This document shows positions 1,020 to 17,244 of a DNA stretch of 64,000 nucleotides, piece after piece. The notes below the pieces were generated by a model, which was given only the letters and a program-made list of their open reading frames with translations, made no database searches and had not been told where the DNA came from. Made by a program: the position numbers and the translations under genes. Position 1 is the stretch's first letter, and each line of letters starts with the position of its first letter. The DNA is from Myxococcota bacterium (lineage in GTDB: Bacteria > Myxococcota_A > UBA9160 > UBA4427), in contig OZ252299.1 in assembly GCA_965250285.1 (NCBI GenBank), positions 3,232,001 to 3,296,000 of the forward strand. Reading direction: 5' to 3'.

Positions 1020-1130
1020 ACGGGCTCGACCGGGCGGGGGCGCGCGCACCGCGCGCACCGCCCCGGCATCCGACACCACTGATCCGCTCCCACACGACCC
1101 GCGCGGGGGCCTGACAACCGGGGATTCCGA

Positions 1131-2129
1131 ATGCTGCGACGCCGGCTGCTGACGATCCCCGGCTACTTCATCGCTACCGCCCTCTGGCTCGGCCTGCTCC
1201 CGGTCACGCTCGTCGCCGCCGCGATCACCGATGCGGTGCGCCGGCGTGGCGCGGTGTTGCTGCGCGGCCTGGCCGCCATCACGGCCTACCTGCTCTGCGA
1301 GTCGATGGGGCTGCTCGCAGCCGCCGCGCTGTGGCTTCGCCGGGCCGTGCTGCCGATGTCGGACGAGGCCTGGGTCGACATCCACTTCAGGCTCGAGGCG
1401 TTGTGGGGCTCGACGCTCTTCACGGCGCTGAAGCACTGCTTCTCGCTCGAGTTCGAAGTGCACGGCGCGGACACCGCCGAGATCGCTCGCGGGCCGTACG
1501 TGTTGGCGCTTCGCCACTGCAGCACGGCCGACACGCTGCTTGCCTCGAAGCTCATCTCGTGGCCGCACGGCATGCGCCTGCGGTACGTCCTCAAGCGCGA
1601 GCTCTTGTGGGATCCTTGCCTCGACGTCGTGGGGCATCGCGTGCCGAACGTCTTCGTCGATCGTTTCACGGACGACACCATCGGTGAGGTGAATCGCGTA
1701 CAGGGGCTGACCCGCAATCTCGGCGAGCACGACGGGGTGCTGATCTATCCCGAGGGCACTCGGTTCACCGAGAAGAAGCGCAATCGCGTGCTCGCGAGCC
1801 TGCGCGAACGAGGGGATGCAGCGATGCTCGAGTACGCTGAGTCACTGAGCGTGCTCTTGCCGCCCAGGCCGGGCGGGCTGCTCGGCCTGCTCGATGCGGC
1901 GCCCACGGCCGACGTCGTGCTCTGCACCCACACCGGCTTCGAAGACGCCGAAACGTTGGGCGCGATCTGGCGCGGCGGCCTCATCGGCCGCAAGGTGCAC
2001 GTGCGCTTCGACCGCATCGCGCGCCCCGACATCCCCAAGGAGCCCGACGGAGCGAAGCAGTGGCTGCGCGACGAGTGGCGGCGGATGAACGGCTGGATCG
2101 AGGCGAATCGAACCCACGACACCGCCTGA
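1131..2129 (+). CDS. PlsC-family (lysophospholipid) acyltransferase
   Basis: N-terminal TM helices, HxxxxD motif (RHCSTAD), LKREL and IYPEGTRFT motif. Confidence 0.85.
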   Translation: MLRRRLLTIPGYFIATALWLGLLPVTLVAAAITDAVRRRGAVLLRGLAAITAYLLCESMGLLAAAALWLRRAVLPMSDEAWVDIHFRLEALWGSTLFTALKHCFSLEFEVHGADTAEIARGPYVLALRHCSTADTLLASKLISWPHGMRLRYVLKRELLWDPCLDVVGHRVPNVFVDRFTDDTIGEVNRVQGLTRNLGEHDGVLIYPEGTRFTEKKRNRVLASLRERGDAAMLEYAESLSVLLPPRPGGLLGLLDAAPTADVVLCTHTGFEDAETLGAIWRGGLIGRKVHVRFDRIARPDIPKEPDGAKQWLRDEWRRMNGWIEANRTHDTA

Positions 2130-2150
2130 GCTTCGAGGCCCGGCCTGCCC

Positions 2151-3038
2151 TCAGGCGCGTTCGGGCAGGCCGAGAAGCGCAGCCGCCTCGGTCGGCGTCG
2201 CAACCGCGCGTCCGCACGCCGCGGCCAGCTCGCCCGCCCGCGCGACGGCCACCGCGTTGCTCTCGGCATCGGGGTCGTCTTCGAGTCCGACGCGCAGATG
2301 CCCACCTCGTTCGATCGCGCGCTTCGCGATCGGCGTGTTGAAGACGTCACCCCCGAGCACGGCGATCGCCCAGGGCAGGCCCGTGCCTTCGAGCATCGCG
2401 CAGTACATGTCGAGCGCCTCGGGGATCGGGGGCGCGCCGAAGATCGGCGGCCCCGAGCCGAGGAACCCGCCGAGACTGAAGTAGAGCTTCACGAGCGTGC
2501 CCGGCGGCAGCGCACCAGCCTGCTGGGCCGCGACGATCACGCGCAGAAAGCCCGGCTCGAAGATGGCGACCGACGGCCCGAGCCGATGTTCGCGGCAGAG
2601 CTCACCCATCACGCGAATCTCGTTCGGCGAGTTCGTGTAGACGTAGTCCATCGGGATCGGCCAGCCGTCTTCGCCCACCGAACCCAGGTTCACCGAACCG
2701 GGGTCGAGAATGCCGCACCGAATCACGCCCTCGCCCGCGAGCACGCGTTGGTGGCCGAGCTTCGCCTCGACACCACCCGGCCCCGCGGCCACGGTGGGAT
2801 AGAGCAGCGCGTCGGGCCGTGCGTCGATGATCGGTCGGTACGCCTCGAGATAGCGCGCCGCGCCCTCGTCGGGTGGCGCCATCGGCGTATCGCTGTGCGT
2901 GTGCACGATCGCGGCGCCGGCGTCGATGCAGGCGAGTGCGTCGCGCACCATCGACTCAGGATCTCGGGGGGCGGCCGGATTGCGCTCAGGGGTCGTGATG
3001 CCGTTCGAAGCCACCTCGATCACGACGGGATCGGACAT
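2151..3038 (-). CDS. Beta-keto acid cleavage enzyme (3-keto-5-aminohexanoate cleavage, Kce/DUF849 family)
   Basis: AGAAIVHTH metal motif, GSVNLG, GGHLRVGLED and C-terminal VATPTEAAALLGL. Confidence 0.88.
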   Translation of the reverse strand: MSDPVVIEVASNGITTPERNPAAPRDPESMVRDALACIDAGAAIVHTHSDTPMAPPDEGAARYLEAYRPIIDARPDALLYPTVAAGPGGVEAKLGHQRVLAGEGVIRCGILDPGSVNLGSVGEDGWPIPMDYVYTNSPNEIRVMGELCREHRLGPSVAIFEPGFLRVIVAAQQAGALPPGTLVKLYFSLGGFLGSGPPIFGAPPIPEALDMYCAMLEGTGLPWAIAVLGGDVFNTPIAKRAIERGGHLRVGLEDDPDAESNAVAVARAGELAAACGRAVATPTEAAALLGLPERA

Positions 3039-3124
3039 GTCGACTCCTCCACTTCGACCGCGCAGACTATCACGGCGCGAGATGCGCGGCGGCGTGCGGG
3101 GTGATCTGCGAGACTCGCCCCCTC

Positions 3125-5563
3125 ATGGGGCCGCTCTCGACCGACAACGCTTGGGGCGCTCCGGGCCGACTCGCAACAGCGGCGCTGTGCGCGGGCTCGC
3201 TCGCGATCACGCTCGTCACCTCGGGCGCGGCGGCCGCAAACGAGGCGACCCGAGCGCCCGAGATCTTCTCGAAGCGAGCGTGGGACGACCCGCCGCGCGA
3301 CGCCCGGCCGGTGGCGCGCTGGTGGTGGCCGGGCGGCAGCGTCGACCGCGACGCGATCGACGCACAGCTCGAAGCGATCGCGGCGGCCGGCTTCGGCGGT
3401 GTCGAGCTTCAGCCCCTGCTGCTCGGCATCGGCGAAGACGATCTCGCGGCTGACCCGCGCCTGCGAAGCGTCGGCACGCCGGGCTATCGCGCGCTCGTCG
3501 CGTACGCCGCCCAGGCGGCGGGCCAGCATGGCCTGGCCTTCGACCTGACCCTCGGCAGCGGCTGGCCCGGTGGGCTGCCCACGGCCCGCGCCAACGCCGA
3601 GCGCCAGCTGCTGATGACGCATGTCGATGTCGAAGGCCCCGACCTGGTCGACGTCGCCGTACCCGCCGCCCCCGATCAGAGCTATCGGCGCAGCGTCGAG
3701 TGGGTGCTCGACGTGCTCGGCCCGATGGATGAAGAGGCCGAACTCGTGGCTGTCGTGGCCGCGCGCGTCGGCCCGAACCGCGAGGGCGTGCCGACCCTCT
3801 CACACGCGCGAGCGCTCGAAGGCGCGGTCGCAAACGGACGCCTGCGCTGGACACCCCCGTCCGGAACGTGGCGCGTCTTCATCTTCTTCAGCAACTCGAC
3901 CGAACACTTCGTGATGGGCGGCGCCTTCCCCGGCGCCGAGGCCGACGCGCGCGTCGTCGACCACCTCGCCGCACGGGGGGCCGACGCGCTGCTCGAAGGC
4001 TACGCCGATCCGCTGCTCGCCGAGGTCGGCGCTCGACACGTGCGAGACGTCTTCGTCGACAGCTTCGAGCTGATGGGCGAGCTGCCCTTCACCGCGGCGT
4101 TCTTCGATGCGTTCGAGTCGCGCGCCGGCTACGACGTGACGCCCGACCTGCCGCTGCTCTTCCGGCGCGGCGGCGAGTCGAAGTACGCCGAGATGATGGA
4201 TCTCTTCGGCCGGCTCGGCGGCCCGGTCTACGTCGACGCCGATTCGGGCCGGGCCGAACGCGTGCGCGAAGACTACGAGCGCGTCCGAAGCGGCCTCTTC
4301 GAGGAGGCCTTCGTCGCCCGCTTTGCAGGATGGTCGCATGCACGAGGGCTGGGCCTTCGCCTGCAGGCCCACGGCGGCTACGGCGACATTCTCGACACGT
4401 ACGCACTGGCCGACGTGCCCGAGAGCGAGGGGCTCTTCGCGGGCGGCGCGTTCGACTTCTTGAAGCTCGCGTCGTCGGCCGCCCACGTCGCCGGGCGCCG
4501 GTGGGCCTCATCGGAGTCGTTCATCACGTTGCGGCTGTTCGGAAGATCGATCGCGAACGAAGAGATGCAGCTGCTCGCGGGCCGGGCGTTCGCAGCGGGC
4601 ATCAACCGCATCGTCTACCACGGCGTCGCGCAGCCCTACGTGCGCGCGGACGGCGCACGCTGGTTTCCGTTCTCGGGCGGCTTCGGACGCATCCTCGCGG
4701 GCCCTCTGCCGATGTCACTCGACGTCGACGCCGCGCGGCTCGCCGCGATTGTGCCCTTCAATCGAGCGCTGGCGCGGTCGGCGGTCGCGATGAGCAGCGG
4801 CGACCCGGCGAGCGACGTCGCGTGGCTGCATCCCGACGCGACCTACCCCGACGCGGCGAGTCTGCAGCTCGGCCGCATCGAAGCCCATGCCGGCGAGTCG
4901 ACCCCGACTGCGGCACTCCGTGCGCGCGGTCTGACCCACGATCGCGTGAGTCGGCGCATGCTCACAGGCGCCCAGCCCGACGGCGACGGCTTCAGAGTCG
5001 GGGCGATGCGCTATCGCGCGCTCCTGGTCGACCCGCTCGACGTCGCCGAGCCCGAGCTCGTCGAAGCGATGGCTCGGATCGCCGAGCACGGCGTGCCCGT
5101 GTTCACGCTCGGGCAGCTGCCCGCGCGCGCCCCGGGGCTGCACGACGCCGACGGGCGCGACGCGCGCGTGCGCTCGGCGCGCAAGCGCCTCGAGGCCCAC
5201 GCGCAGCGCGTGGCCCCCGAGGCGCTCGAAGCGGCGCTCGCGCGCCGCGTTCGCGGCGATCTCGTTGCGCCAGCAGGGAACGAGCAGCTCACGGTCTCTC
5301 TCGCTCGGCGCACCCACCCGCACGGCGACACGCTGCTCGTCTTCAACGAGTCGTGGTCGCCCACTTCGGCACAGCTGCGCTTCGTTCGCAGCGGCCACGA
5401 TCTCACCCGCTGGAACCCCGAAACCGGTGCCCCCACACAGTTGCGTGCCCGGGTCGAATCGGGCGACGTCGTTTCCGTCCCACTCGAGCCGGCCGCGTGG
5501 ACGATCCTCACCCTCGGTCGCACGACCAACCCGGCCGGTCGGGGCCGCGACGACAGCCCGTAG
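3125..5563 (+). CDS. Secreted glycoside hydrolase, GH106 (alpha-L-rhamnosidase-like)
   Basis: Signal-like N-terminus, RPVARWWWPGG, GFGGVE, DLTLGSGWP, FVDSFE, DVPESE, KLASSAAHVAG and GINRIVYHG. Start uncertain (3101 or 3125). Confidence 0.8.
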   Translation: MGPLSTDNAWGAPGRLATAALCAGSLAITLVTSGAAAANEATRAPEIFSKRAWDDPPRDARPVARWWWPGGSVDRDAIDAQLEAIAAAGFGGVELQPLLLGIGEDDLAADPRLRSVGTPGYRALVAYAAQAAGQHGLAFDLTLGSGWPGGLPTARANAERQLLMTHVDVEGPDLVDVAVPAAPDQSYRRSVEWVLDVLGPMDEEAELVAVVAARVGPNREGVPTLSHARALEGAVANGRLRWTPPSGTWRVFIFFSNSTEHFVMGGAFPGAEADARVVDHLAARGADALLEGYADPLLAEVGARHVRDVFVDSFELMGELPFTAAFFDAFESRAGYDVTPDLPLLFRRGGESKYAEMMDLFGRLGGPVYVDADSGRAERVREDYERVRSGLFEEAFVARFAGWSHARGLGLRLQAHGGYGDILDTYALADVPESEGLFAGGAFDFLKLASSAAHVAGRRWASSESFITLRLFGRSIANEEMQLLAGRAFAAGINRIVYHGVAQPYVRADGARWFPFSGGFGRILAGPLPMSLDVDAARLAAIVPFNRALARSAVAMSSGDPASDVAWLHPDATYPDAASLQLGRIEAHAGESTPTAALRARGLTHDRVSRRMLTGAQPDGDGFRVGAMRYRALLVDPLDVAEPELVEAMARIAEHGVPVFTLGQLPARAPGLHDADGRDARVRSARKRLEAHAQRVAPEALEAALARRVRGDLVAPAGNEQLTVSLARRTHPHGDTLLVFNESWSPTSAQLRFVRSGHDLTRWNPETGAPTQLRARVESGDVVSVPLEPAAWTILTLGRTTNPAGRGRDDSP

Positions 5564-5730
5564 CGACCCGCTCGCGCCCTGATCGAAGGCCTTGCACGGG
5601 TCGGACGGAACGACTTGCCACCGGCGCGCGCAAGCTCGAAGCTCCGGCCGCGCACCCCAACGGAGAACGTCCCTTCGATGCACCCCGAGCCGAGGCACCC
5701 TGGCGCGCATCCGCGCGGCGGCGTGCGCCG

Positions 5731-7431
5731 ATGAGCCGCTCGACCCCCGCGCCCGGGCCGCGCCTTCGCGGCGCACGAACGCACCGGTGGGCTCGCGCTG
5801 CCGCGAGCCTGTTCGTGCTCGCTTCACTCGCCTGCGCCCAGAAGGGTGGACCGGTCGATCCGATCGGTCCCGACCTGATGCAGGAGCTGCCCTCGGACGC
5901 TGAAGACATCGAGATCTTCGGCGGCATCCCGCTGAACGGCCTGCGCTTCATCGGCACGCACAACTCGTACCACCTGTGGCCGCGCCTGTTCGGCCTGCCG
6001 TTTCTGCCGATCGCGTTCTCGGCGAAGCATCGCTACGCGCAGCCGCCGCTCGGTGAGCAGCTCGACGGTGTGCCGGGTGGCCCGGGCGCCGTGCGACAGA
6101 TCGAGCTCGACCTGCACATGCGCCGCTTCGACGACTCGATCCGGGTGCTGCACGTGCCGTGGATCGACAACCACACGAGCTGCAAGACCCTGCAGATCTG
6201 CCTCGAGCAGGTCATGGACTGGTCCGAGAAACGCGGCGGGGTGCACGCCCCGGTTCTCATCTGGCTCGAGCCCAAGGACAAGACGCCCATCGACCGCTGG
6301 ATGTCGCTCGGCTTCTACGAGCGCGTCGACCTGATGCGCGTCGAAGAGGCGGTGTTCGAGGTCATCCCACGAGAACGCATCCTCATGCCGGATGACCTTC
6401 GGCGCGGCGAGCGCACGCTGCCCGACGCCATCACTCATCATGGCTGGCCCACACTCGATGCGCTCGAAGGCAAGTTCATCTTCGCGCTGCTCGACGAGAG
6501 CGAGCATCGACAGGAGTACGTCGGGCTGAGCCCGCTGCGCAATCTCGAAGGCCGGCTCATGTTCGTGCGCTCGAGCGCACCGACCGAGCCCTGGGCCGCG
6601 ACGTTCAAGATCGACAACTCGGTGCCGACCCTCGAAGACATGCAGGTCTTCGGGCAAGAGGCCCTCGCCGATCCCGAGCTCGCGGCCCTGCAGGTGTACC
6701 CCGAGCCCCCGACGACCGACAACGCGTTCGTCGCCTGGTGGAAGAACCTGTGGCTGATCGCGCAAGGCCAAGGCGACGAGACGGGGTCGAGCGAGAACGA
6801 AGACGAGGACGCAGCCCGACAGAACCGGTCGAAGGGCGATACCGAGCCCTCGCCCGACAGGCAGAGCGTGGTCAACGGCGAGCCCTCAGCCGATGCTGAT
6901 GCCGGCGCAGAGAAAGACCTCACGAGCGAAGCCAAGGCGCCGACGCCCGAGGTCGATTGGCGGCTGCGTCGCGAGCTGCGCTCGGTCTCGTTCGACACGC
7001 GCGACGAGGCGCGCCAGCGTCACCTCGAAGCCGTCGATGCGCTCGAAGAGCGGATGCGCGCCGAGGTCGCGCCCGAGAGCGAGGATCTCGCCATCGTGCT
7101 CGAGAACGCGCGGCGATCGCGCGACTACCGGGACGTGCTGCGCGAGCGCCTGCGCGGCTTCATCGGCGACCACCGTCGCGCGCGAATCCTCGCGCTCGTG
7201 CGCGACGGTTTCCTCGTCACGACGACCGCCGACGACCCCCACCGCGACGCCGACACCAACCGCCGCGTCGCGCTCTCGTCGCTGCTCTCGGGCGCTCAGT
7301 ACGTGAGCACGAACGCGCTGACGCCGAGCGCGCGAGATGGCTATCTGCTCGAGGTGCCCGGCGCTTCGATCCGCTGCAACGTGCTCGTCGACCCCGACGG
7401 CTGCGCCAACGCCGTCGACGACGAGCGCTGA
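5731..7431 (+). CDS. Ca2+-dependent PI-PLC-like phosphodiesterase, probable lipoprotein, with a large internal insertion
   Basis: Lipobox-like SLAC, IGTHNSYH, VRQIELDLH, HAPVLIWLEPKD, GWPTLDALEGK and SGAQYVST. The true start is the ATG at 5731 inside the long 3868 ORF. Confidence 0.8.
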   Translation: MSRSTPAPGPRLRGARTHRWARAAASLFVLASLACAQKGGPVDPIGPDLMQELPSDAEDIEIFGGIPLNGLRFIGTHNSYHLWPRLFGLPFLPIAFSAKHRYAQPPLGEQLDGVPGGPGAVRQIELDLHMRRFDDSIRVLHVPWIDNHTSCKTLQICLEQVMDWSEKRGGVHAPVLIWLEPKDKTPIDRWMSLGFYERVDLMRVEEAVFEVIPRERILMPDDLRRGERTLPDAITHHGWPTLDALEGKFIFALLDESEHRQEYVGLSPLRNLEGRLMFVRSSAPTEPWAATFKIDNSVPTLEDMQVFGQEALADPELAALQVYPEPPTTDNAFVAWWKNLWLIAQGQGDETGSSENEDEDAARQNRSKGDTEPSPDRQSVVNGEPSADADAGAEKDLTSEAKAPTPEVDWRLRRELRSVSFDTRDEARQRHLEAVDALEERMRAEVAPESEDLAIVLENARRSRDYRDVLRERLRGFIGDHRRARILALVRDGFLVTTTADDPHRDADTNRRVALSSLLSGAQYVSTNALTPSARDGYLLEVPGASIRCNVLVDPDGCANAVDDER

Positions 7432-7688
7432 GCGCCCGCCCGGCCGCGCGGCCACGAAGTCGAGCCAGACCGGCGAGTTGCGACTCGGCCTGCGCCGTCG
7501 CGACGACTCGGGCAGCGCGCTTTGCCCCCCATCCATCCACACCCGTGCCATTCGGCCCATGGGTGGCTGCGCCGAACCACCCGATGATGCGACCCGACGC
7601 TGCCAACCGGCAGCTCGATCGATCGGCAGCCCGCCGATCGCCGCGGCCGATGGTGGGCGCGATCCAAGTGAAACGGAGTGGTTGGAAC

Positions 7689-8708
7689 ATGCTGGGGTTC
7701 GACGTGCGCAACGGCTGGGCGGTCCTGGGTCTTCTGCTGGTGAGCTTCTTCGGCATTGCATGCGGCGAAGAAGGAGGCGAAGCCGGCGCCGTCCCGCAGG
7801 CCGACTTTGCCGCGATCTTCGAAGGCGAAGCGGTCGAGATCGAAACGCAGGGCACCGAGACGCGGCTGACGTTCCAGGACATCCGCTACGACTTCGGCAC
7901 GGCGTTCGGCCTCGACCCTGTCTCGCACCCGACGCTCGACAAGTTCGCCATGGTCTTCGCGACGATGCCCGCGGCCCGGTACATGGTCGTGGGGCACACC
8001 GACGACCGCGGTGACGCCGATGGTCGAGTCGAAGAATCGAAGCAACAGGCCGGCGCCGTCGCCAGCTATCTGATCGGGATCGTGGGCGGCGAACGGCTCG
8101 CGTTCGACTCCGACGGCGTCGGCGGCGCTTTCCCGATCGCGACCAATGCCACCAAGAACGGCCGAGCGCTCAACCGTCGCATCGAGATCATCGTCGAGGC
8201 CGATCCGCCCGGCCGTACATATCGTCTGACGATGGCGGCCGACGTGCTCGACGTCATCGAAGACTGCGACGATTTCACGGGCTCGCCGTCTGCGGCCGCC
8301 GGCGACTTCTTCATCCAGACCGAGTTCGCGTTCTTCAGGAGCACACGGATCACCAACTCGCCGAACGTCGAGGTCCCCGCCAACGCCGGCGAGACCATCG
8401 ATCTCGACATCGCAGCCGAGACGCTCTACTGGACGTCTCGTAGCGGGAGCCTCGACTACCGCGTCGACTGGTCCGAGGCCGATACCGAGGGCCCGCAGTT
8501 CGAGTTGTCGGCGGGGAGCGACATCCGGTGGTCCGAGTCGGACGGATGCTGGCTCGTCAACGTGGGACCGCCCGGCGGAAGGTGTCTCTCGCGCACCGAG
8601 GGCGTGATCGACTCCGGCACGTCGATCGTCGCGATGCCCGGCACCGCGACCCAGGATGCATGCTTCGTCGAGCTCGACTGGTCGCTGACCGCTGAGCGGG
8701 TTCAGTAG
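7689..8708 (+). CDS. OmpA-like peptidoglycan-binding lipoprotein with an unknown C-terminal domain
   Basis: Lipobox GIAC, VVGHTDDRG and GRALNRRIEI OmpA_C motifs. Confidence 0.8.
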   Translation: MLGFDVRNGWAVLGLLLVSFFGIACGEEGGEAGAVPQADFAAIFEGEAVEIETQGTETRLTFQDIRYDFGTAFGLDPVSHPTLDKFAMVFATMPAARYMVVGHTDDRGDADGRVEESKQQAGAVASYLIGIVGGERLAFDSDGVGGAFPIATNATKNGRALNRRIEIIVEADPPGRTYRLTMAADVLDVIEDCDDFTGSPSAAAGDFFIQTEFAFFRSTRITNSPNVEVPANAGETIDLDIAAETLYWTSRSGSLDYRVDWSEADTEGPQFELSAGSDIRWSESDGCWLVNVGPPGGRCLSRTEGVIDSGTSIVAMPGTATQDACFVELDWSLTAERVQ

Positions 8709-8877
8709 GTGGCGGTCGACCGACCGCGTGTGGCTGCCGATCGTTTGCGCAAGAGCTGCCGGTCGCGCGCCCGCGCAGCGATCTAGGGGCACACGATCAC
8801 AAGGTCGACCGCGCTCCAACCGATGAGGTGTGGGTGCAGCCCGGCCGCGGCGTGCACCTGCGACGTCTCTGGAGCCC

Positions 8878-9438
8878 ATGTTGCACGCCCCCGCCCCGCC
8901 CTCCCCCGATACGCGACCGACGCCTCCCTTCTTCGGCGCGCTTCGACGCGCGACGGCGCGTGTCGGCTCACCCGAAGCGCGAAGCCTCTCGGCGGAGCTC
9001 GCCGCCGACGTGGTCGAGGGGGGATGGCGGGTCGTGCAGTCGATCCGTTGGCCGACCTGGGGCGGCGCCGTCGACTTCTTCACGCACCAGGTGGTCGTGA
9101 ACTTGGTCGGCTGGATGGCGGGCTTCGCGACCGCGCACCTCGTCACGCGCTGGTTCGAGGTGCGCGGGCTCCGCAATCTCTGGGGCCTCGTCGCATCGGG
9201 CGACCGCACGCTCGTGAGTGCCGATCACCATCGCTTGATCATGACGTTCACCGGCTTCACCGTCGGGCTGCTCATGATGCTCTTCGTTCGGCACTGCTTG
9301 ATGCGCTGGATCGCCGAGACGCGCTCGCTCCGCGCCGACCGACGCGGCGGCCACGTGGCGACGCGCGAAGAGCACGCTCCTTCGAGTGGCGTGCCCCTCG
9401 CGCACTTCGAAGCACTCGAAGCCGAGCCCGAGCAGTAG
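8878..9438 (+). CDS. Hypothetical membrane protein
   Basis: Host-like codon usage and two hydrophobic segments; GGAG upstream of ATG 8878. Confidence 0.55.
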   Translation: MLHAPAPPSPDTRPTPPFFGALRRATARVGSPEARSLSAELAADVVEGGWRVVQSIRWPTWGGAVDFFTHQVVVNLVGWMAGFATAHLVTRWFEVRGLRNLWGLVASGDRTLVSADHHRLIMTFTGFTVGLLMMLFVRHCLMRWIAETRSLRADRRGGHVATREEHAPSSGVPLAHFEALEAEPEQ

Positions 9439-10020
9439 CGAGCCCACACCGCGGTCCACGCCCTTTCGTCGCGCGCTCAGCCCAACGACGCGAAGGGATC
9501 GATACGTCTCGCACACGCACGAAGCTGTTTGTCGAACCAACGCAGCGTGGGTCGGCATCCGTCGTCGTTCGCGCCACGATTTCGATGCGCGCGTATCGCC
9601 CCGCGAACGGGTCGTAGCGCGAGCAAGCCGTCCGGTCGACATCTCGGTGTCGCCAGCGCGTTCGATTGACGGCTTGCACCGATCGATGACGTTGTAAAGA
9701 AGCGAAACAACATCACCACAGCATGTCTCGAGCGCATGATGTCACGAAACCCGCACACCTCAGGGGTCGTCATGCGTCGAGCGCAACCTATGCCACAAAC
9801 AATCTTTGCACTGACTCGGCGTCCACGCGCTCAACGCGATCATGACGATTGGACCGATGGAACTGAAAGATTTCGGCTGCACACTGTGTGCACGTCGAAG
9901 CGAACCGAGCTCGTTCGGCGCTTCGACGTCAATTGCGCTGTGTGCGGCGTGGTAGGATCCACGAGCGACGCGCAGTCGAAGCGACTCTGTTGAATCGAGT
10001 CTGTCCTGGAGACACCGTCG

Positions 10021-10512
10021 ATGAAGCCCTGCGCGTTGATCCTGTCGATCCTGCTCACGATCGCGAGCAACCCGGCCTGGGCCGATGACGAGATCGTCTC
10101 GGGCCCCGACCGGCGCCACGAACTGGACCTTCGGATCAAAGAGATCGAAACCGAGCGAGATCAGATCTCGGTCGCGGCACCGGCGGTCTACACCTTCATT
10201 GGGCTCGGCATCGCCGCGGTCGGGGCTTTGGTTCTCGGAGGCGGGATCGCCCGCAACAACGATCCCGACGGCTCGCCTTCAGGCACCGCTGCCATTGGCG
10301 GCGGCGCGGCGCTCATCGCCATTGGCGGTGTGACCAGCTTCATCAGCGGCACCGTATGGAGTCGCCGCTCCGACAAGCGCAATGCGCTCGATGCCGAGCG
10401 CGAGTCGCTCATCAAAGAGCGCGGGACGCTCAGCGAAACGCTCTCCCGCGTCGAGATCCGAAGCCCACACCGTGACGGCACCCAGTTCGTGACGCTCGGC
10501 GTTCGCTTCTGA
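10021..10512 (+). CDS. Tandem paralog 1: secreted protein with Gly-rich hydrophobic hairpin and C-terminal beta-signal-like FVTLGVRF
   Basis: Signal peptide MKPCALILS...PAWA, GGAGA RBS, clear homology to the next four ORFs. Confidence 0.85.
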   Translation: MKPCALILSILLTIASNPAWADDEIVSGPDRRHELDLRIKEIETERDQISVAAPAVYTFIGLGIAAVGALVLGGGIARNNDPDGSPSGTAAIGGGAALIAIGGVTSFISGTVWSRRSDKRNALDAERESLIKERGTLSETLSRVEIRSPHRDGTQFVTLGVRF

Positions 10513-10666
10513 GACAGCGCGCTCTTGGGGCTGCACGATGCGAGGGCCGCACCCGCCCCATCAGCTCACCAGAGACACGCCTTCGCGGCATTCATTCTTG
10601 ATCGGCATGCGACGATCGACATCGAATCGACCCTCGAACGCCGATTCGGTCTGGGAGGAAAGCTCG

Positions 10667-11149
10667 ATGAAGCCCTGCGCGTTGATCCTGTCGATCGTCG
10701 TGACTCTGACCGGCAGCCCTGCTTGGGCCAACGACGAAGTGCTCCTACCGACCGACGTTCGCAGGTACATCGACCTCCGCGTAGAGGAGCTCGATGCCGA
10801 GCGCGATCAGATCTCGACGACAGGACCGCAGCTGGCCACGATCTTCGGCGTTCTGGGGGTCGTGGGCGGCACGGTGGCGCTGCTCGCTGCGCCACAGGCC
10901 ACGAACGACGAGAACGCTCCAGTCGGCGCCATCACAGCGGGCTTGATGCTCATGACGGCGGGCGGCGCCTCGACGGTCGTCGGCGCGATCTTGTGGGGAA
11001 AGCGTGCGAAACGGCGCCGAACGATCGACGCCGAGCGCGAGCTGCTGATCAAGGAGCGCAACGCCATCACCGAGTCGCTCTCGCGGATCGAGCTGAGCGC
11101 CCCGTTCCGCGACGGCACCCATTTCGTCACGCTCGGCGTTCGATTCTGA
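10667..11149 (+). CDS. Tandem paralog 2
   Basis: MKPCALILS start after GGAGG; ends RDGTHFVTLGVRF. Confidence 0.85.
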   Translation: MKPCALILSIVVTLTGSPAWANDEVLLPTDVRRYIDLRVEELDAERDQISTTGPQLATIFGVLGVVGGTVALLAAPQATNDENAPVGAITAGLMLMTAGGASTVVGAILWGKRAKRRRTIDAERELLIKERNAITESLSRIELSAPFRDGTHFVTLGVRF

Positions 11150-11304
11150 GACCGAATGGCGTCTGACTTTCGAACATCGAAGCGGTCCATCCGCGCCACG
11201 CCTTCAAGGGCGATGAGGTTTCGGATCACACATCCACATTCGGCCGCAACGAACGACATCGAAACCGCCCTCGGGCATCGACTTCGTTCAGGGAGAGAAC
11301 CTCG

Positions 11305-11799
11305 ATGAAGACCTGCGCGTTGATGTTGTCGCTCATTTTTTCCCTCGCCAGCTGCCCGGCATGGGCGAACGACGAAGCGCTGGCGCCGACGGACGTTCGC
11401 AGGCACATCGACCTGCGCCTCAAGCTGCTCGATTACAAGCGCGAGCAGATCTCGACGACGGCGCCAAAGGTGGCGACGTTCGCGGGCATCGGAGGGTTGC
11501 TGGGCGGTGCGATCGCGATCGTCGTCGCAACGCAGGGGTGCCGAAGCGCCGACCGCTCTTGCGGAGACCGCTGGGGTGCATCCATTGCAGGGATCACCTT
11601 GCTCTCGGTCGGCGGCGTCACGACGCTCATCAGCGGCATCGTGTGGGGCACGCGGGTCAAGCAACGCAACAAGATCGATGCCGAGCGAGAGCTGCTGATC
11701 AAGGAGCGCAACGCCATCACCGAGTCGCTCTCGCGCATCGAGCTGAACACCCCTTTCCGCGACGGCACCCAGTTCGTGACGCTCGGCGTCCGGTTCTGA
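11305..11799 (+). CDS. Tandem paralog 3
   Basis: MKTCALMLS start; Cys-pair loop; ends RDGTQFVTLGVRF. Confidence 0.85.
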   Translation: MKTCALMLSLIFSLASCPAWANDEALAPTDVRRHIDLRLKLLDYKREQISTTAPKVATFAGIGGLLGGAIAIVVATQGCRSADRSCGDRWGASIAGITLLSVGGVTTLISGIVWGTRVKQRNKIDAERELLIKERNAITESLSRIELNTPFRDGTQFVTLGVRF

Positions 11800-11952
11800 G
11801 ACCGCCTCGCGCCTGATCGACGCGCGTCGAAGCGGGCCATCGACCCAATGACCTCACCCACGAAACGGCTTCAAGTCACGCATCCATCTTCGGCCCTACA
11901 GAATGACATCGAGCCCGGCTCGGGCACCGACTTCATTCAGGAGGCAACACCG

Positions 11953-12447
11953 ATGAAGACCTGCGCCCTCATTCTCTCGATCGTGATGACCCTCGCAAGC
12001 GCCCCAGCTTGGGCGCTCGACGACGTCGCAACCCGACCCGACCGCCGCCATGAGATCGACCTGCGCATCGAGGCCCTCGAGGCCGAGCGCGAGGAGATCT
12101 CGACCAAAGGCCCCAAGGTGGCCACGATCTTCGGGATCACATCCCTCCTGAGTGGCGTGGGTGCGTTGGCTTCGCTCGCCCGACCGTGTCGCGAGGCATT
12201 CGATGAATGCGCACCCCGCGTGGGCGCAGGCGTCACCGGGATCACATTGTTCGGCGTCGGCGGCATCTCGACCATCGTCGGCGGCCTCCTCTGGAACAAG
12301 CGCGCGAAACGTCGCCGCGCCATCGAGGCGGAGCGTGAAGCGCTGATGCACGAGCGCGAGGCGCTCGCCGAGGCGCTGTCGCGCATCGAGCTGAGCACCC
12401 CGTTCCGCGACGGTGCCCGGTTCGTGACGCTCGGCTTCACCTTCTGA
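11953..12447 (+). CDS. Tandem paralog 4
   Basis: MKTCALILS start after AGGAGG; Cys-pair loop; ends RDGARFVTLGFTF. Confidence 0.85.
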   Translation: MKTCALILSIVMTLASAPAWALDDVATRPDRRHEIDLRIEALEAEREEISTKGPKVATIFGITSLLSGVGALASLARPCREAFDECAPRVGAGVTGITLFGVGGISTIVGGLLWNKRAKRRRAIEAEREALMHEREALAEALSRIELSTPFRDGARFVTLGFTF

Positions 12448-12510
12448 AACGCGTCGATCGATCAGCCGAAACCCGAATCACCGAACGGAACTGTCTTGGA
12501 GAATCGAATC

Positions 12511-13023
12511 GTGAAGTCGTGCGCCCTGCTCTTGTCGCTCCTCCTGACCTTCATCAGCGGCCCCGCCTGGGCGGAGGAATCGCTGGTCACCGGGCCCGAT
12601 CGTCGCCAAGAGATCGATCTGCGCCTCGAGTCGCTCGACGCCGAACGCGCGAAGATCTCGACGCGCGGGCCTGCGATCGGAACGGCCGTCGGGCTGGGCA
12701 CGGTCGCCCTGGGCGGGGTCTTGCTCGGCGTCGGGGTCGCTCAGTGCGACGGGCGAGCGAGCGAATACGGACCGTGTACCGGCCCAGGCTCGGGGATCGG
12801 CGCACAGGTCGGCGGCGTCGTCATGATGATCGCGGGCGGCTCGATCACGCTCATCAGCGGCATCGTCTTGGGCCGTCGCGCCAGCCGCCGCGACAAGATC
12901 GACGCCGAGATCGAGTCGCTCATCGACGAACGAAAGGGCCTCAAGGCCACGCTCTCACGGCTCGAGCTGAAGAGCCCCCACCGCAACGGCACTCAGTTCG
13001 TGACGCTCGGGTTCGACTTCTAG
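12511..13023 (+). CDS. Tandem paralog 5
   Basis: GTG start (MKSCALLLS) after GGAGA; Cys-pair loop; ends RNGTQFVTLGFDF. Confidence 0.85.
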   Translation: MKSCALLLSLLLTFISGPAWAEESLVTGPDRRQEIDLRLESLDAERAKISTRGPAIGTAVGLGTVALGGVLLGVGVAQCDGRASEYGPCTGPGSGIGAQVGGVVMMIAGGSITLISGIVLGRRASRRDKIDAEIESLIDERKGLKATLSRLELKSPHRNGTQFVTLGFDF

Positions 13024-13083
13024 GCGGCGTCGGGTGACTCACCCGCGCACGTACCAGATCGAACCAACATGGAGACGGGCATC

Positions 13084-13146
13084 GTGAAGCTCCTTGCGTT
13101 GATCTCATCGCTCCTCCTGACCTTCATCAGCGGCGGCGCCTGGTGA
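13084..13146 (+). pseudogene. Truncated tandem paralog 6 (signal peptide only, MKLLALISSLLLTFISGGAW*)
   Basis: 27 bp (13108-13134) identical to paralog 5 (12535-12561); homology ends abruptly at TGG-TGA. Confidence 0.8.
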
Positions 13147-13637
13147 ATGACGGAGACCCCACCCCGATCATCGTGATACTGAAGGTCATGTCCGGAGTTC
13201 GTATCGACGCTTCGGACCCGATGCATGAACGGCTCCAAGCCGTCGTCCAGTTTCCGGGCGTCGACCTCGACGATCTCGACGACTCGGAGCCGCCCTTCTT
13301 CACGTATCTCCCAGAAGTCGTTGCTCACACGTCCGACGAGGACTTCTGTGCGGCGCGCGACGAGCTGCGAGAGCTTCTGAGGCTCGCCGATCCGGTGGCC
13401 GAGAAGATCGGCGATCGGCTGCATCCGCTCGCTGCCAGGGTCGCCCTCAGCTACCGCGAGGACTTCGACCCGTTCATGTGCAAGCTGCTCGTGATCACCT
13501 GGGCGGGGTTCAGGCAGGTCGAGCATGGACGCGAGCAATACACTCGCGCGCGCGACTGGCTCGTGACGACGAATGCGCTCACGGAGCGACCGCAGCTATC
13601 GACCGAGGAGAGAAGCGATGCCCGTCATTCTCGATGA
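13143..13637 (+). CDS. Hypothetical protein, possibly a 5'-truncated fragment of an element gene
   Basis: Open frame begins right at the junction with truncated paralog 6, with no clear RBS; overlaps the cas1 start. Confidence 0.5.
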   Translation: MNDGDPTPIIVILKVMSGVRIDASDPMHERLQAVVQFPGVDLDDLDDSEPPFFTYLPEVVAHTSDEDFCAARDELRELLRLADPVAEKIGDRLHPLAARVALSYREDFDPFMCKLLVITWAGFRQVEHGREQYTRARDWLVTTNALTERPQLSTEERSDARHSR

Positions 13638-14844
13638 ATCACCCGTCAAGTCCGGCACACTGATGCTCCGCGGCTACGGAATCCGCATCGCGGTCGAGCG
13701 TGGATATCTCGTTGCGGAGGACGGCGTCGGCCGCGATCGACGCCGGATCCGCATTCCCCGGCCATCTCGCAACCTCGACCGCGTGATTGTCATCGGGCAC
13801 ACCGGCGAGATCACGTTCGACGCTCTGCGCTGGCTCTCGGACATCGGTGTGGGGTTCTCTCAGATCGACAACGACGGGAACGTGATCGCGGCAGTTGGCC
13901 CTCTGGGCCTTCGCGACCCCAGGCTGCGGCGTGCTCAGGCGATGGCAGCCGATACGGGTCGTGGCCTGGAGATTGCGCGGGATTTGATCCTCACAAAGCT
14001 GGAGTCACAGGCATCTGTTGTGTCTCGTCTCTGCCGAGCGCCCGCAAATGATGTAGGTGAAGCCTTCGAGAAGGCGCGGGGCGCGGAGTCGATCAAAGCC
14101 TTGCGTTCGCATGAGGCGACCGGAGCGCTGTCCTACTGGTCGGCCTGGTCGGATCTGCCGATGCGGTTTATCGGCAAGGATGAGAAGCGCGTACCCGAGC
14201 ACTGGAAGGCCTTCGTGCAGCGCACTTCGTACGTGACGAAGAGTCCGCGCAAAGCGATGAATCCGATCAATGCGATTCTGAACTACCTCTACGCGATCCT
14301 CGAAACAGAGGCCCGGATCGCCTGCCTGGGAGTAGGCCTCGACCCCGGCATCGGGCTCATGCACGCGGACCTGCAGTCGCGGGACTCACTGGCCGCAGAT
14401 CTCATGGAGCCGATCCGTCCTGAGGTCGATGCATGGGTGCTCGACCTCGTCCAGAGCAACATCTTCCGGAAGGCTGACTTCTTCGAGACTCGCGACGGGG
14501 TCTGCCGTCTCATGCCACCGCTCACCGAACAGCTCATGAAGACCGAGAATCATTGGCGGAGGCTGATCGCGCCAATCGCGGAGTACGTCGCGAAGCGGCT
14601 ACTAGTCGATCCCACCGCGGGGAGTCGCCGCACCGACAAGATCAAGCTCAAGACACCTCTCACGCAGGAGAATCGGAGCCGAGCGCGGGATGGGGTTCGC
14701 CGGCGACGAAGGCCCTCCAGCAAGCGACCGAGGCATCTGCTCGATCGCATCTGCGCCGACTGCGGGGCCAGCGTGGGACCGAGTACCGAACGCTGTCCGT
14801 CCTGCAGGCCTCCGTGTCGATCCAGCCAGACGGTGCGCGGCTAG
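13618..14844 (+). CDS. cas1: Solo Cas1 endonuclease/integrase, casposase-like, with C-terminal CxxC-x10-CxxC Zn ribbon
   Basis: GAGGAG RBS. N-terminal beta domain (GYGIRIAVERGYLV, ITFDALRWL). Catalytic motifs HEATGALSYW (E), NAILNYLY, GLDPGIGLMH (H) and DLMEPIRP. C-terminal CADC...CPSC. Confidence 0.9.
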   Translation: MPVILDESPVKSGTLMLRGYGIRIAVERGYLVAEDGVGRDRRRIRIPRPSRNLDRVIVIGHTGEITFDALRWLSDIGVGFSQIDNDGNVIAAVGPLGLRDPRLRRAQAMAADTGRGLEIARDLILTKLESQASVVSRLCRAPANDVGEAFEKARGAESIKALRSHEATGALSYWSAWSDLPMRFIGKDEKRVPEHWKAFVQRTSYVTKSPRKAMNPINAILNYLYAILETEARIACLGVGLDPGIGLMHADLQSRDSLAADLMEPIRPEVDAWVLDLVQSNIFRKADFFETRDGVCRLMPPLTEQLMKTENHWRRLIAPIAEYVAKRLLVDPTAGSRRTDKIKLKTPLTQENRSRARDGVRRRRRPSSKRPRHLLDRICADCGASVGPSTERCPSCRPPCRSSQTVRG

Positions 14845-14870
14845 ACAAGGGGGCCGAAAACCCCGCATTC
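14842..14870 (+). repeat. TIR-like motif copy C (TAGACAAGGGGGCCGAAAA...), beginning at the cas1 stop codon
   Basis: 17/19 match to the reverse complement of 15987-16005. Confidence 0.65.
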
Positions 14871-14975
14871 ACACCGAACCCAATACCGGGACGAGTCGAG
14901 GGCGAGGCGCCACATCAGCGCTAGGCCGAACGATCGCCGCACCAGAGCCAAGACGAGAGAGCGGGGCTGTGGATC

Positions 14976-15022
14976 CCCGCAAGACCGAAAGCGGCTTTGT
15001 TGGACCCCCTACCTACTATTCC
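14976..15022 (-). repeat. TIR-like motif copy A
   Basis: About 36/48 identity by hand alignment to 15965-16012 (direct); inverted relative to copy C. Confidence 0.6.
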
Positions 15023-15153
15023 AGCTGACGGCGGAAACGATCAGCGACTGCCTCGCGCTCAGCGCTAGGATCCCGCGGCATTCACTTGCTCGACCGATAC
15101 AACTGGCGATTCACCAGGTACTCGAGCAGCCAGATTTCCACAGGAGTCGATCC

Positions 15154-15684
15154 ATGATTCGCTTCGTTGCGGCCACGGTTTCCCTGATCACCTCACTCTC
15201 GATGGTCGCCCCCGTGCGGGCCGAGAGCGCAAAGAAGGTCGACGACCCGACCGGCTGGTCAGTGGGCGGGGGCATCGGCGCCGCCGCCAGCCCCGGACAG
15301 TTCGTGCTCCAGCTGGATGCGCCGTACCGCTTCTCCGAGTTGTTCTCAGCGGCTCCGACCTTCCAGCTGCTGGCGGGCAGCAGCTTCACGCGAATCTCGA
15401 TGTCACTCGACGGAGTGGTGCACCTGAACCTCTTCGACGAGAGCGACAACGTCGTCCTCGCGAATCTGACGCCTCACGTCGGCCTCGGTGCAGGCTTCAC
15501 TCACTTCAGTGCGTTCGGCTTCAACGAAACGAATTTCCTCCTCCCTATCATCATGGGGCTCGAGTTCGATCTCACGGAGGAGATCGCGCTGACGAACGAG
15601 ATGCGGTTCAACATCGTAGTCACCAGCGATTTCGACACCTTCTACTGGTCATGGCAGCTGATCGGGGTCCGGTACCGGTTTTGA
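15154..15684 (+). CDS. Small outer-membrane beta-barrel protein (8-stranded OmpA/OmpW-like fold)
   Basis: AGGAG RBS, signal peptide ending VRA, alternating beta strands, PHVGLGAGF and C-terminal GVRYRF. Confidence 0.8.
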   Translation: MIRFVAATVSLITSLSMVAPVRAESAKKVDDPTGWSVGGGIGAAASPGQFVLQLDAPYRFSELFSAAPTFQLLAGSSFTRISMSLDGVVHLNLFDESDNVVLANLTPHVGLGAGFTHFSAFGFNETNFLLPIIMGLEFDLTEEIALTNEMRFNIVVTSDFDTFYWSWQLIGVRYRF

Positions 15685-15964
15685 GTCGAGAGCCCGAATC
15701 TCGCGCCGGTTACACAGCACGATCCCTCAGAGTACAGCCGGAGATCTAGTCCTCGAATGCGTGAATGGGGTTACTCACGTCTGCGTGAGCCAGCCTGGCT
15801 GCTCGGTCGACTTCTTCTCAGGCCACGGCCTCTCGAATACGTATGGCTACTACATTGGCCGTATCGCTACATCCTGATCTGAGCCGCGATTGAGGAGCGA
15901 TCCGCCTGCCTCTCTACCTGCTGACCTAACTAGAATCAAGATTCGAACGGATTGAGTTCAGTTT

Positions 15965-16012
15965 CCCGCAGGAGCCAAGGCGGCCCTTTTCGACCCCCTT
16001 ATCTACTAACCC
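15965..16012 (-). repeat. TIR-like motif copy B, probable right end of the element
   Basis: Reverse complement begins GGGTTAGTAGATAAGGGGGTCGAAAA; related to copies A and C. Confidence 0.65.
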
Positions 16013-16021
16013 TCAGGCGAG

Positions 16022-16056
16022 TTGACCGGAACCGACTTTCGTCTTATTTTCGCCTC
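16022..16056 (+). promoter_or_regulatory. Sigma70-like promoter TTGACC-N17-TATTTT (leaderless) overlapped by a TTCG-N7-TTCG direct repeat
   Basis: -35 at 16022-16027, -10 at 16045-16050, ATG at 16057; TTCG at 16038 and 16049. Confidence 0.6.
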
Positions 16057-17244
16057 ATGTCGACGATCCCGAAGCCCACCCTGCCTCTCTCGCAGACGCC
16101 CGCCCCACGCGTGGCCCAGACCGCTCCGGCGGGCGCCCTGCGCGGCCGTGGGGCGCTCGACAACCCCACGAATCGCTTCGAGCGGTACCACTACGACCGC
16201 GATGAAGAGGCGCTCGCGGCGATCCGCCTGGCGGATCACGTCGACGACGCGCCCGAGGCGGCGGGGCTCGACGGCGAAGACGAAGCGGCGCTGCGCCCCC
16301 ACCCCGACACCCTCTTTCTGCGCGACCCGACGCGCAAGATCCTCAGCCGCAACGCGAGCCCCGACGTGCCGTTCGACGTCAGCATCAATCCGTATCGCGG
16401 CTGCGAGCACGGTTGCATCTACTGCTACGCCCGGCCTGGCCACGAGTTTCTCGGCTTTTCGGCCGGGCTCGACTTCGAGACCCGCATCCTCGTGAAAGAG
16501 GACGCACCCGAGCTGCTGCGCGACGAGCTGCTGAAGCCGAAGTATCGGCCGAAGCTGATCGGGCTCTCGGGCGTGACCGACCCGTACCAGCCGATCGAGC
16601 GAAAGACTCGGCTCACCCGGCGCTGCCTCGAGGTGCTCGCCGAGTTTCGCAACCCAGTCGGGCTCATCACGAAGAACGCGCTGGTGCGACGCGACGTCGA
16701 CGTGCTGCGCGAGCTGACCGATCACGGGGCGCTGGCGGTCAGCCTGTCGATCACGACGCTCGACGACGAGCTGCACCGGGTGCTCGAGCCCCGCACGTCG
16801 TCGCCCCGCATGCGACTCGAAGCGGTTCGGGTGCTGGCCGACGCGGGGATCCCCGTCGGCGTGAACGTGGCCCCGGTGATCCCGGGGCTCAACTGTCACG
16901 AGATCCCGTCGATCCTCGAGGCGGCCGCGGCGGCCGGGGCTCGCACGGCGGGGCACATCGTGCTGCGGCTGCCCCATGGCGTGAAAGAGCTCTTCGAGGC
17001 CTGGCTGCGCGAGCACCGCCCCGAGCGCGCCGACAAGGTGCTCAACCGGCTGCGCTCGATGCGCGGCGGCGCGCTCGACGATTCACGCTTCGGGACGCGC
17101 ATGAAGGGCGAAGGCATCTTCGCGCAACAGATCCACGATCTGTTCGATGTGTCTTTGCGGCGCGCGGGCCTCGCGCGCGAACGCACGACGCCGACGACCG
17201 AACACTTTCGCCGCCCGCCCGCGCCGCAGCTCGAGCTCTTCTGA
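16057..17244 (+). CDS. PA0069/Rv2578c-family radical SAM protein (spore photoproduct lyase-like, DNA repair)
   Basis: GRGALDNPTNRFE, SINPYRGCEHGCIYCYAR (CxxxCxxC), SGVTDPYQPIE and C-terminal QLELF (beta-clamp-like motif). Confidence 0.9.
   Translation: MSTIPKPTLPLSQTPAPRVAQTAPAGALRGRGALDNPTNRFERYHYDRDEEALAAIRLADHVDDAPEAAGLDGEDEAALRPHPDTLFLRDPTRKILSRNASPDVPFDVSINPYRGCEHGCIYCYARPGHEFLGFSAGLDFETRILVKEDAPELLRDELLKPKYRPKLIGLSGVTDPYQPIERKTRLTRRCLEVLAEFRNPVGLITKNALVRRDVDVLRELTDHGALAVSLSITTLDDELHRVLEPRTSSPRMRLEAVRVLADAGIPVGVNVAPVIPGLNCHEIPSILEAAAAAGARTAGHIVLRLPHGVKELFEAWLREHRPERADKVLNRLRSMRGGALDDSRFGTRMKGEGIFAQQIHDLFDVSLRRAGLARERTTPTTEHFRRPPAPQLELF

Follow-up and report, generated by a model that had tools for sequence, protein, structure and literature searches.

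A stretch of 64,000 nucleotides from a Myxococcota bacterium (contig OZ252299.1, positions 3,232,001 to 3,296,000; hereafter the window) is part of a single-contig 6.25-Mb genome and carries, ahead of a host radical-SAM gene, an array of paralogous genes, a cas1 gene of the casposon type and three motifs related to casposon ends, the terminal inverted repeats (TIRs). The locus is laid out as follows, in window coordinates.

1..10020, no strand assigned: upstream part of a 19-kb insert; host-like genes, element ends not found, casposon origin unproven
10021..10512, plus strand: array unit 1; signal peptide, long helical hairpin, hydrophobic Gly-rich centre and C-terminal ...TLGxxF tail, of no known family
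10667..11149, plus strand: array unit 2, paralogue
11305..11799, plus strand: array unit 3, paralogue
11953..12447, plus strand: array unit 4, paralogue
12511..13023, plus strand: array unit 5, paralogue
13084..13146, plus strand: unit 6 stub; 20 signal-peptide codons (13084-13143), then a stop, with a rearrangement junction at 13143
13143..13637, plus strand: hypothetical open reading frame (ORF); on weak evidence, what may be left of the 3' end of the gene ahead of cas1 in related casposons
13618..14844, plus strand: cas1, a family-3-type casposase of 408 aa; E166/H249/D261/E264 conserved, zinc finger kept, C-terminal helix-turn-helix (HTH)-like tail of ~110 aa missing
14842..14869, plus strand: motif A, part of a casposon end in inverse orientation to B and C, without the terminal bases; supplies the cas1 stop codon
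14976..15022, minus strand: motif B, degenerate casposon end in the same orientation as C, with a target-like stretch after it
15154..15684, plus strand: small beta-barrel-like gene of outer-membrane type, likely cargo, flanked by ends B and C; PF13505 at E 0.0013, below cut-off
15965..16012, minus strand: motif C, intact casposon TIR, which starts GGGTTAGTAGATAAGGGG at 16012
16013..16026, plus strand: 14-bp target site, promoter-side copy, ending in TTGAC; upstream copy not found
16022..16050, plus strand: promoter-like host site (TTGACC and TATTTT, 17 nt apart); also conserved ahead of the radical-SAM gene in relatives that lack the element
16057..17244, plus strand: host radical-SAM gene (PF04055), found in 26/41 genomes; right flank, outside the element

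Much of this had been described in an earlier note on the same DNA, and the comparison bears it out: five paralogues with conserved ends and variable centres (mean identity 30% in the centre, 50-67% at the ends), a sixth copy cut at its signal peptide, and three related TIR-like motifs. The beta-barrel gene is also present, although its family match is weak; homologues occur in 8/67 family genomes, none next to a clear casposon end. The earlier note had missed that cas1 is C-terminally truncated, that B and C are co-directional, that all three motifs lie downstream of cas1 and that the target begins just past 16012. As to a possible mis-assembly at 13143, contigs of three out of three public runs bridge the junction without differences; the runs belong to one study, and one of them may be the assembly source. 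The same runs yielded no sequence variants and no alternative junctions at the element ends, within contigs that drop rare variants; apparent joints in this comparison proved to be cross-mapping between paralogues.

Casposon ends and the truncated casposase

Motifs A and B match C better than 20000/20000 random 40-mers and 1500/1500 random 1.3-kb regions. A TIR profile was derived from 15 ends at other loci; in a whole-genome search, it placed C first (E 6.5e-7) and B second (E 0.13), with A weak at E 2.6 in the window. The C-type end recurs in the congener G001 and in loci L157, L158, L138 and L172, and the end pattern was found in 4/193 genomes (control 0), comprising this genome, G001 and two others that carry the cas1 of the same clade. 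No left end was found in this genome; the locus has one intact end, one degenerate co-oriented end and one partial inverted end inside. A lone weak match at 41427-41447 falls within the chance range of the genome. That motif C is ordinary host DNA was rejected, because conservation in 24 other relatives is confined to the promoter and the motif itself matches casposon ends. A 190-bp mini-element spanning A to B within cas1 was likewise rejected: its flanking repeat is not significant (7.4% of random pairs), the cas1 frame is not resumed behind B (83% of the null as good) and the tail profile has no match there.

The Cas1 product passes the Pfam PF01867 and TIGR00287 cut-offs, passes no type I or V subtype cut-off and stays below that of type II. 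Its best relatives are 47-58% identical, the residues E166, H249, D261 and E264 are invariant across 23 alignment rows, and the best PDB matches include the M. mazei casposase 6opm. By eye, ~35/63 residues agree with a published alignment row taken as AceAut-C1, in the stretch of it that is visible. In a FastTree phylogeny (77 rows, 321 columns, six CRISPR-type outgroup rows, cas1 ORFs <420 aa left out), Cas1 falls, at 0.999, into a group with the polB-bearing locus L019 and six metagenome proteins, where its branch is the longest, about twice the L019 one (0.59 vs 0.32). The tree, which the earlier note had proposed as a check, places the protein among polB-linked Cas1 proteins and away from the 6 CRISPR-type rows, and it probably nests among the bacterial (family 3) casposases.

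Of the 119 listed relatives of this Cas1, 102 are 480 aa long or longer, and the median is 522; their post-zinc-finger tail, searched as a profile, had 0 matches in the window or the six-frame genome. The truncated protein is probably inactive, because removal of the HTH abolishes integration by the M. mazei casposase (PMC6977970). The clade is rare among kin, with cas1 in 5/193 genomes of the order and 2/401 sampled from the phylum; a second cas1 of the clade was not found in this genome, a first genome scan with the single Cas1 gave 0 matches, and viral contigs had no match to Cas1, the array or the end pattern. Two single genomes elsewhere, G530 and G531 (L190-L200, L213-L216), hold 5 and 3 cas1 genes of the clade, and three resolved elements in them lie at tRNA-like 3' ends. 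At L138 8561-8971, a second cas1 is cut by a casposon end followed by AGCTG, as at motif B here, and the same stretch has a polB fragment interrupted by an IS21-like element. Several copies of the cas1 tail-coding segment, in both orientations, occur at L044 5530-12509 within one 13.8-kb unit that has a perfect duplication and no polB-cluster ORF.

Companion genes were sought across a set of 80 relative loci, two of which (L024 and L025) come from an unpublished genome, with no claim resting on them alone. An ORF of the polB cluster (~1000 aa, fragments included) occurs in 42/80 loci and in 36/52 of those with at least 6 kb upstream, and the cluster consensus shows what we take to be the family-B exonuclease and polymerase motifs. 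The HTH cluster is found in 32 loci and HNH-like clusters in 14 plus 5, with all three kinds of gene present in the nearest relative with DNA; no homologue of any of them was found in this genome. The clade mostly has the family-B polymerase (PolB), so its absence here is a loss, and the PolB-less, gene-diversifying element proposed in the earlier note is largely refuted by that note's own test, since close Cas1 relatives sit in PolB casposons. Its statement that the window has no cas2, CRISPR array or PolB did hold, and polB and cas2 were not found genome-wide either (PF09827 with 0 matches, where the control matched 6/14); no CRISPR array was matched by Rfam in the window, and a rough scan of the genome listed 11 candidates with three copies each, all of them outside the insert. 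Searches for tRNA and Rfam families gave 0 matches in the window. When the hypothetical ORF before cas1 was compared with 5303 ORFs, its best non-self match was the L019 gene that lies upstream of cas1 (E 0.04); with this one weak match, and nothing from hhalign or a search for longer homologues, we did not adopt it as a casposon gene.

Of the features that define an intact family-3 casposon, the locus lacks four, namely PolB, TIRs at both ends, target duplications on both sides and the HNH and HTH genes. It is therefore the relic of a family-3 element and no longer an intact one.

The duplicated target site

The earlier note took an outer-membrane-protein locus as the possible target or cargo of the element. 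The target is instead a -35 box, that of the promoter of the radical-SAM gene, which lies 3 kb downstream of the array, and comparison with empty sites agrees with this, in that the promoter-like stretch is conserved in relatives without a casposon end. No upstream copy of the target was found at 12/14 or better within 300 kb. Complete relatives with GGG ends and perfect 14-bp duplications number 12 (5/81 loci and 7/15 extended regions, a complete element not being resolved in the other 8/15). TTGAC is present in the target of 4/12, and three others lie, by eye, at tRNA-like 3' ends; we regard TTGAC as a trait of a subclade.

Among host-side ends with TTGAC, 7/11 are followed by TAnnnT at 16-18 nt (background 1.7-1.8%), and these seven fall at two orthologous promoters only, those of the radical-SAM gene and of rrf2 (five genomes). 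A relaxed box (background 7-9%) adds sodN and lexA, and at two ends (L054, L061) a -10-type box is absent even so. At the five rrf2-promoter ends (L022, L044, L055, L071, L079), the 14-mers all differ, and a conserved inverted repeat that resembles an operator comes after each. At L073 1197-1905, a casposon lies at the lexA promoter, just upstream of a palindrome that we take to be SOS-box-like. In the window, the stretch at 16028-16056 reads TTTCG-N-TTA-N-TTTCGCC over the -10 box, occurs family-wide upstream of the radical-SAM gene and is probably an operator. An open-access literature search returned no report of promoter targeting or of natural cargo-only casposon units; the supplements of PMC4779613, with further family-3 targets, lie outside that search.

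On this evidence, we consider it probable that family-3 casposon DNA was inserted at the radical-SAM -35 box and that the locus is what decay has left of its promoter-side edge, with a truncated, probably inactive cas1 and an array that likely came as cargo and then likely grew by tandem duplication.

The paralogous array and the wider insert

The five array genes are 43-59% identical, with no further copies in the 6.25-Mb genome and no Pfam or NCBIfam match at cut-off. In the unit tree, units 2-4 form a clade (99/95), with units 1 and 5 apart, and the centre types recur across samples as supported clades, which argues for an old family rather than rapid variation made by Cas1. The spacers between units are paralogous to each other and contain no casposon ends or target copies; Cas1 thus appears not to insert or vary the units. 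The description of the products as hypervariable surface proteins survives in part: the centres are variable, 'hypervariable' overstates it and 'surface' is unproven. An AlphaFold model shows a signal helix and a long helical hairpin, with a tail without resolved fold (pLDDT 77, pTM 0.52). Foldseek returned no match to it at E 0.001 and ranked generic helical hairpins highest, and its Atlas neighbours are unnamed, with Borrelia P13 at 0.85 as a lead only. From the signal peptide, hydrophobic hairpin and C-terminal Phe, the proteins are likely exported membrane proteins; an outer-membrane location is suggested by the terminal Phe alone, presumably a sign of such proteins.

These results bear on whether the locus represents a new kind of PolB-less Cas1 element that diversifies surface-protein genes, as one option in the earlier note would have it in full. 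The lack of polB in the genome, the open cas1 frame with its catalytic residues and the variable centres would fit such an element. We nevertheless find it highly improbable, given the polB, HNH and HTH genes of the nearest relative with DNA, the absence of ends or target copies between units, the recurrence of centre types in other samples and the lack of variants in the three runs.

The case for the array as casposon cargo comes from other loci. A profile search gave 37 homologues outside the window, nearly all on short contigs, and a wider search gave 94 representatives, 7 of them at E 1e-30 or better. Other loci with array DNA are G001 (L159 is the same DNA, counted once), L157 and L158, all short, and in all three an array gene stops 38-143 bp short of the same casposon end, on its inner side. 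In G001, the target and the radical-SAM promoter come after this end, which thus faces the promoter; in L157 and L158, it is followed by the reversed target and a second end, and faces away. L158 has the same 14-mer as G001, and L157 a different one. The array-bearing end thus stands in both orientations to the target, and the array is, to judge from these sequences, likely casposon cargo. A recurrent link of the array family to this Cas1 clade, which the earlier note had asked about, is accordingly seen for the casposon ends (three of three loci) and not for cas1 itself (24 loci).

Alternatively, the array could be a resident host locus, with casposon ends beside it because the neighbouring promoter is their target and deletions brought them close. 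No left end was found upstream of the array, the GC content at third codon positions (GC3) of the array is host-like, and the five paralogues are old and do not form one clade. Distant homologues occur in 11/31 genomes of another genus, and a scan of 28 such loci showed no clear end in their vicinity (best E 0.19). Set against this are the array gene, homologous spacer and end found together in G001 and L157, at opposite target polarity and with different 14-mers, and the presence of close homologues in only 2/68 family genomes, both with the end. A resident array is, on balance, very unlikely.

Junctions in which two ends share 14 bp were found in 9 loci (L044, L067, L138, L157, L158, L172 and three extended regions). 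The stretch L067 9547-11321 is a unit of 1775 bp that has two ends, a perfect 14-bp duplication and neither cas1 nor polB; this cargo-only unit adjoins an autonomous element, and a third end-like start lies at 11336. The unit holds two small ORFs without a Pfam match, one of them lipoprotein-like.

The 19-kb insert corresponds to genome positions 3228999-3248012 (window about -3001 to 16012) and lies between an aminopeptidase gene and the radical-SAM promoter. The aminopeptidase gene sits at most 1.5 kb upstream of the radical-SAM gene in 12/23 relatives with upstream DNA; here it ends ~3 kb before the window, 19 kb from the radical-SAM gene. GC content is 62-66% over 9000-16500 and 70-72% just downstream. 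Six insert genes are common to G001 (contigs L133 and L009), in a different order with strands kept, and the 20 kb downstream of the insert are collinear between the two genomes. The 580-bp intergenic stretch at 9440-10020, upstream of unit 1, is low in GC (59%) and has no end or target match. In L009, a truncated succinate-dehydrogenase iron-sulfur-like fragment, 70% like the copy in this genome, precedes the array gene, through either rearrangement or an assembly chimera. Across 21 intergenic stretches of the insert in the two genomes, no end or target remnant rose above background, the best TIR score of 24 and the best target score of 18 both equalling the 99th percentile of the null; for this reason, a casposon origin is shown for the promoter-side part of the insert only.

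A bolder explanation is that a casposase built the whole 19-kb insert as a stack of gene cassettes, cargo-only units flanked by casposon ends being serially inserted at the -35 box in trans, possibly by the shortened Cas1, so that the insert, array included, is an analogue of a CRISPR array at gene scale. The L067 unit next to its autonomous element shows such a unit, the array units of L157 and L158 are joined end-to-end with other units, and the L158 neighbour resembles the C-terminus of the OmpA-domain gene at window 7689-8708 (tblastx 1e-6). The reordered genes in G001 beside a collinear downstream flank, an intact end C with a decayed end B, and a GC content that falls towards the promoter are also in keeping with it, as is the tandem integration in vivo of an engineered mini-casposon (PMC10359463). 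However, no remnants rise above background in the 21 intergenic stretches, genes in the upstream part are host-like (GC3 0.85-0.92), and the changed gene order could also come from tandem duplication combined with random loss. The two G001 contigs are not joined, and the three runs show no alternative end junctions. We therefore judge a stack of this extent unlikely.

Several observations weigh against the decayed casposon edge that we favour. There are only 3 other loci with close-homologue DNA, and the 37 homologues outside the window are nearly all without context; the 85 casposon loci yielded no array homologue, and no cas1 turned up in the 24 loci with array homologues, which cover 104 kb and involve mostly short or distant ones. 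Because no left end or upstream target copy is found here, the place of the array in the element is taken from relatives. Array GC3 is 0.82-0.88, host-like, as against 0.76 for cas1. Complete relatives outside the four with TTGAC target tRNA ends or other sites. The polB call was made from motifs, with no Pfam match and a best PDB polymerase at E 0.26, not significant. Some family-1 and family-3 casposases are without HTH (PMC4046053; for HTH-less casposases, see also PMC8464041), and the cas1 frame here is open with its catalytic residues intact, so that its inactivity is inferred only.

Both options of the earlier note thus contribute to the decayed-edge reading. The decayed casposon stands, on its PolB relatives, truncated cas1 and long branch, while the array as its landing site does not; the array as likely cargo stands, on homologues tied to casposon ends, while the PolB-less type and diversification by Cas1 find no support, there being no ends or targets between units. 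We propose that a casposase tetramer would have joined the GGG ends across the 14-bp site by staggered integration, duplicating the 14 bp and leaving the host promoter intact. The regenerated site could then be re-used, giving stacked units in which end B would be older and end C newer. The array may have come in at the end of such an element and grown later by ordinary tandem duplication, and deletions may have taken the polB side and the remainder of unit 6 at junction 13143, and the cas1 tail at motif A.

Relation to known systems

The locus is a relic, and it exposes a bacterial casposon subclade whose duplicated site holds the -35 box of the radical-SAM, rrf2, sodN or lexA promoter and which stacks in tandem, with at least one natural cargo-only unit. 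This provides a defined target and ends with which to test a family-3 casposase, and a testable case of repeated Cas1 integration at one leader-like site making repeat-unit-repeat arrays; insertion that is site-specific and spares the promoter could be useful as an integration tool. We speculate, as a possible but rather unlikely extension, that promoter-targeting family-3 casposases build gene-scale arrays in which end-bounded, cargo-only units for exported proteins are stacked at one -35 box with the 14-bp repeat between them; the 19-kb insert would then be an aged product, integron-like and a natural intermediate between casposon and CRISPR array.

Unlike an integron-like cassette array, the locus has no repeated recombination site between array units or in the wider insert, and unlike a CRISPR-Cas adaptation module, it has no cas2 that we could find and no CRISPR array matched in the window. 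Among published elements, AceAut-C1 of family 3 (PMC4046053) is the closest; it has a similar TIR and a direct repeat with GTCAA, which is TTGAC read on the opposite strand, and its Cas1 has zinc and HTH domains at the C-terminus. AceAut-C1 shares with our locus a Cas1 that looks close by eye, the zinc finger after the Cas1 domain, a GGG-TAGTAG-type TIR, a direct repeat of 14-15 bp with GTCAA/TTGAC and an intergenic target. Our locus differs in being without polB, HNH and HTH genes and the Cas1 tail, and in having one intact end and one target copy; the target listed as 'intergenic' in PMC4046053 is here a -35 box.

Tandem casposons and solo ends have been published for archaea (PMC4779613, PMC6563490; review PMC9939771). 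As in Methanosarcina (PMC4779613), one 14-bp duplication joins elements, some copies are inactivated and decay has left lone ends. The Methanosarcina casposons belong to family 2/4, are archaeal, use a CGCA-type target and keep casposon genes in both tandem copies, whereas L067 has a natural cargo-only unit. The M. mazei mini-casposon (PMC10359463) shares the principle that a chromosomal casposase moves cargo bounded by ends and stacks it in tandem; it is synthetic and archaeal, and the units described here are natural, with mobility inferred by comparison only. The proposed family 5 (PMC9755687) also has cas1 with TIRs and no polymerase nearby, but, as described there, lies near type I-A Cas1 and is mostly without PolB, whereas the present clade mostly has it. 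Relative to these systems, the novelty lies in the promoter target, the cargo ends and the stacking of a known kind of element, of which the locus itself preserves mostly the decay.

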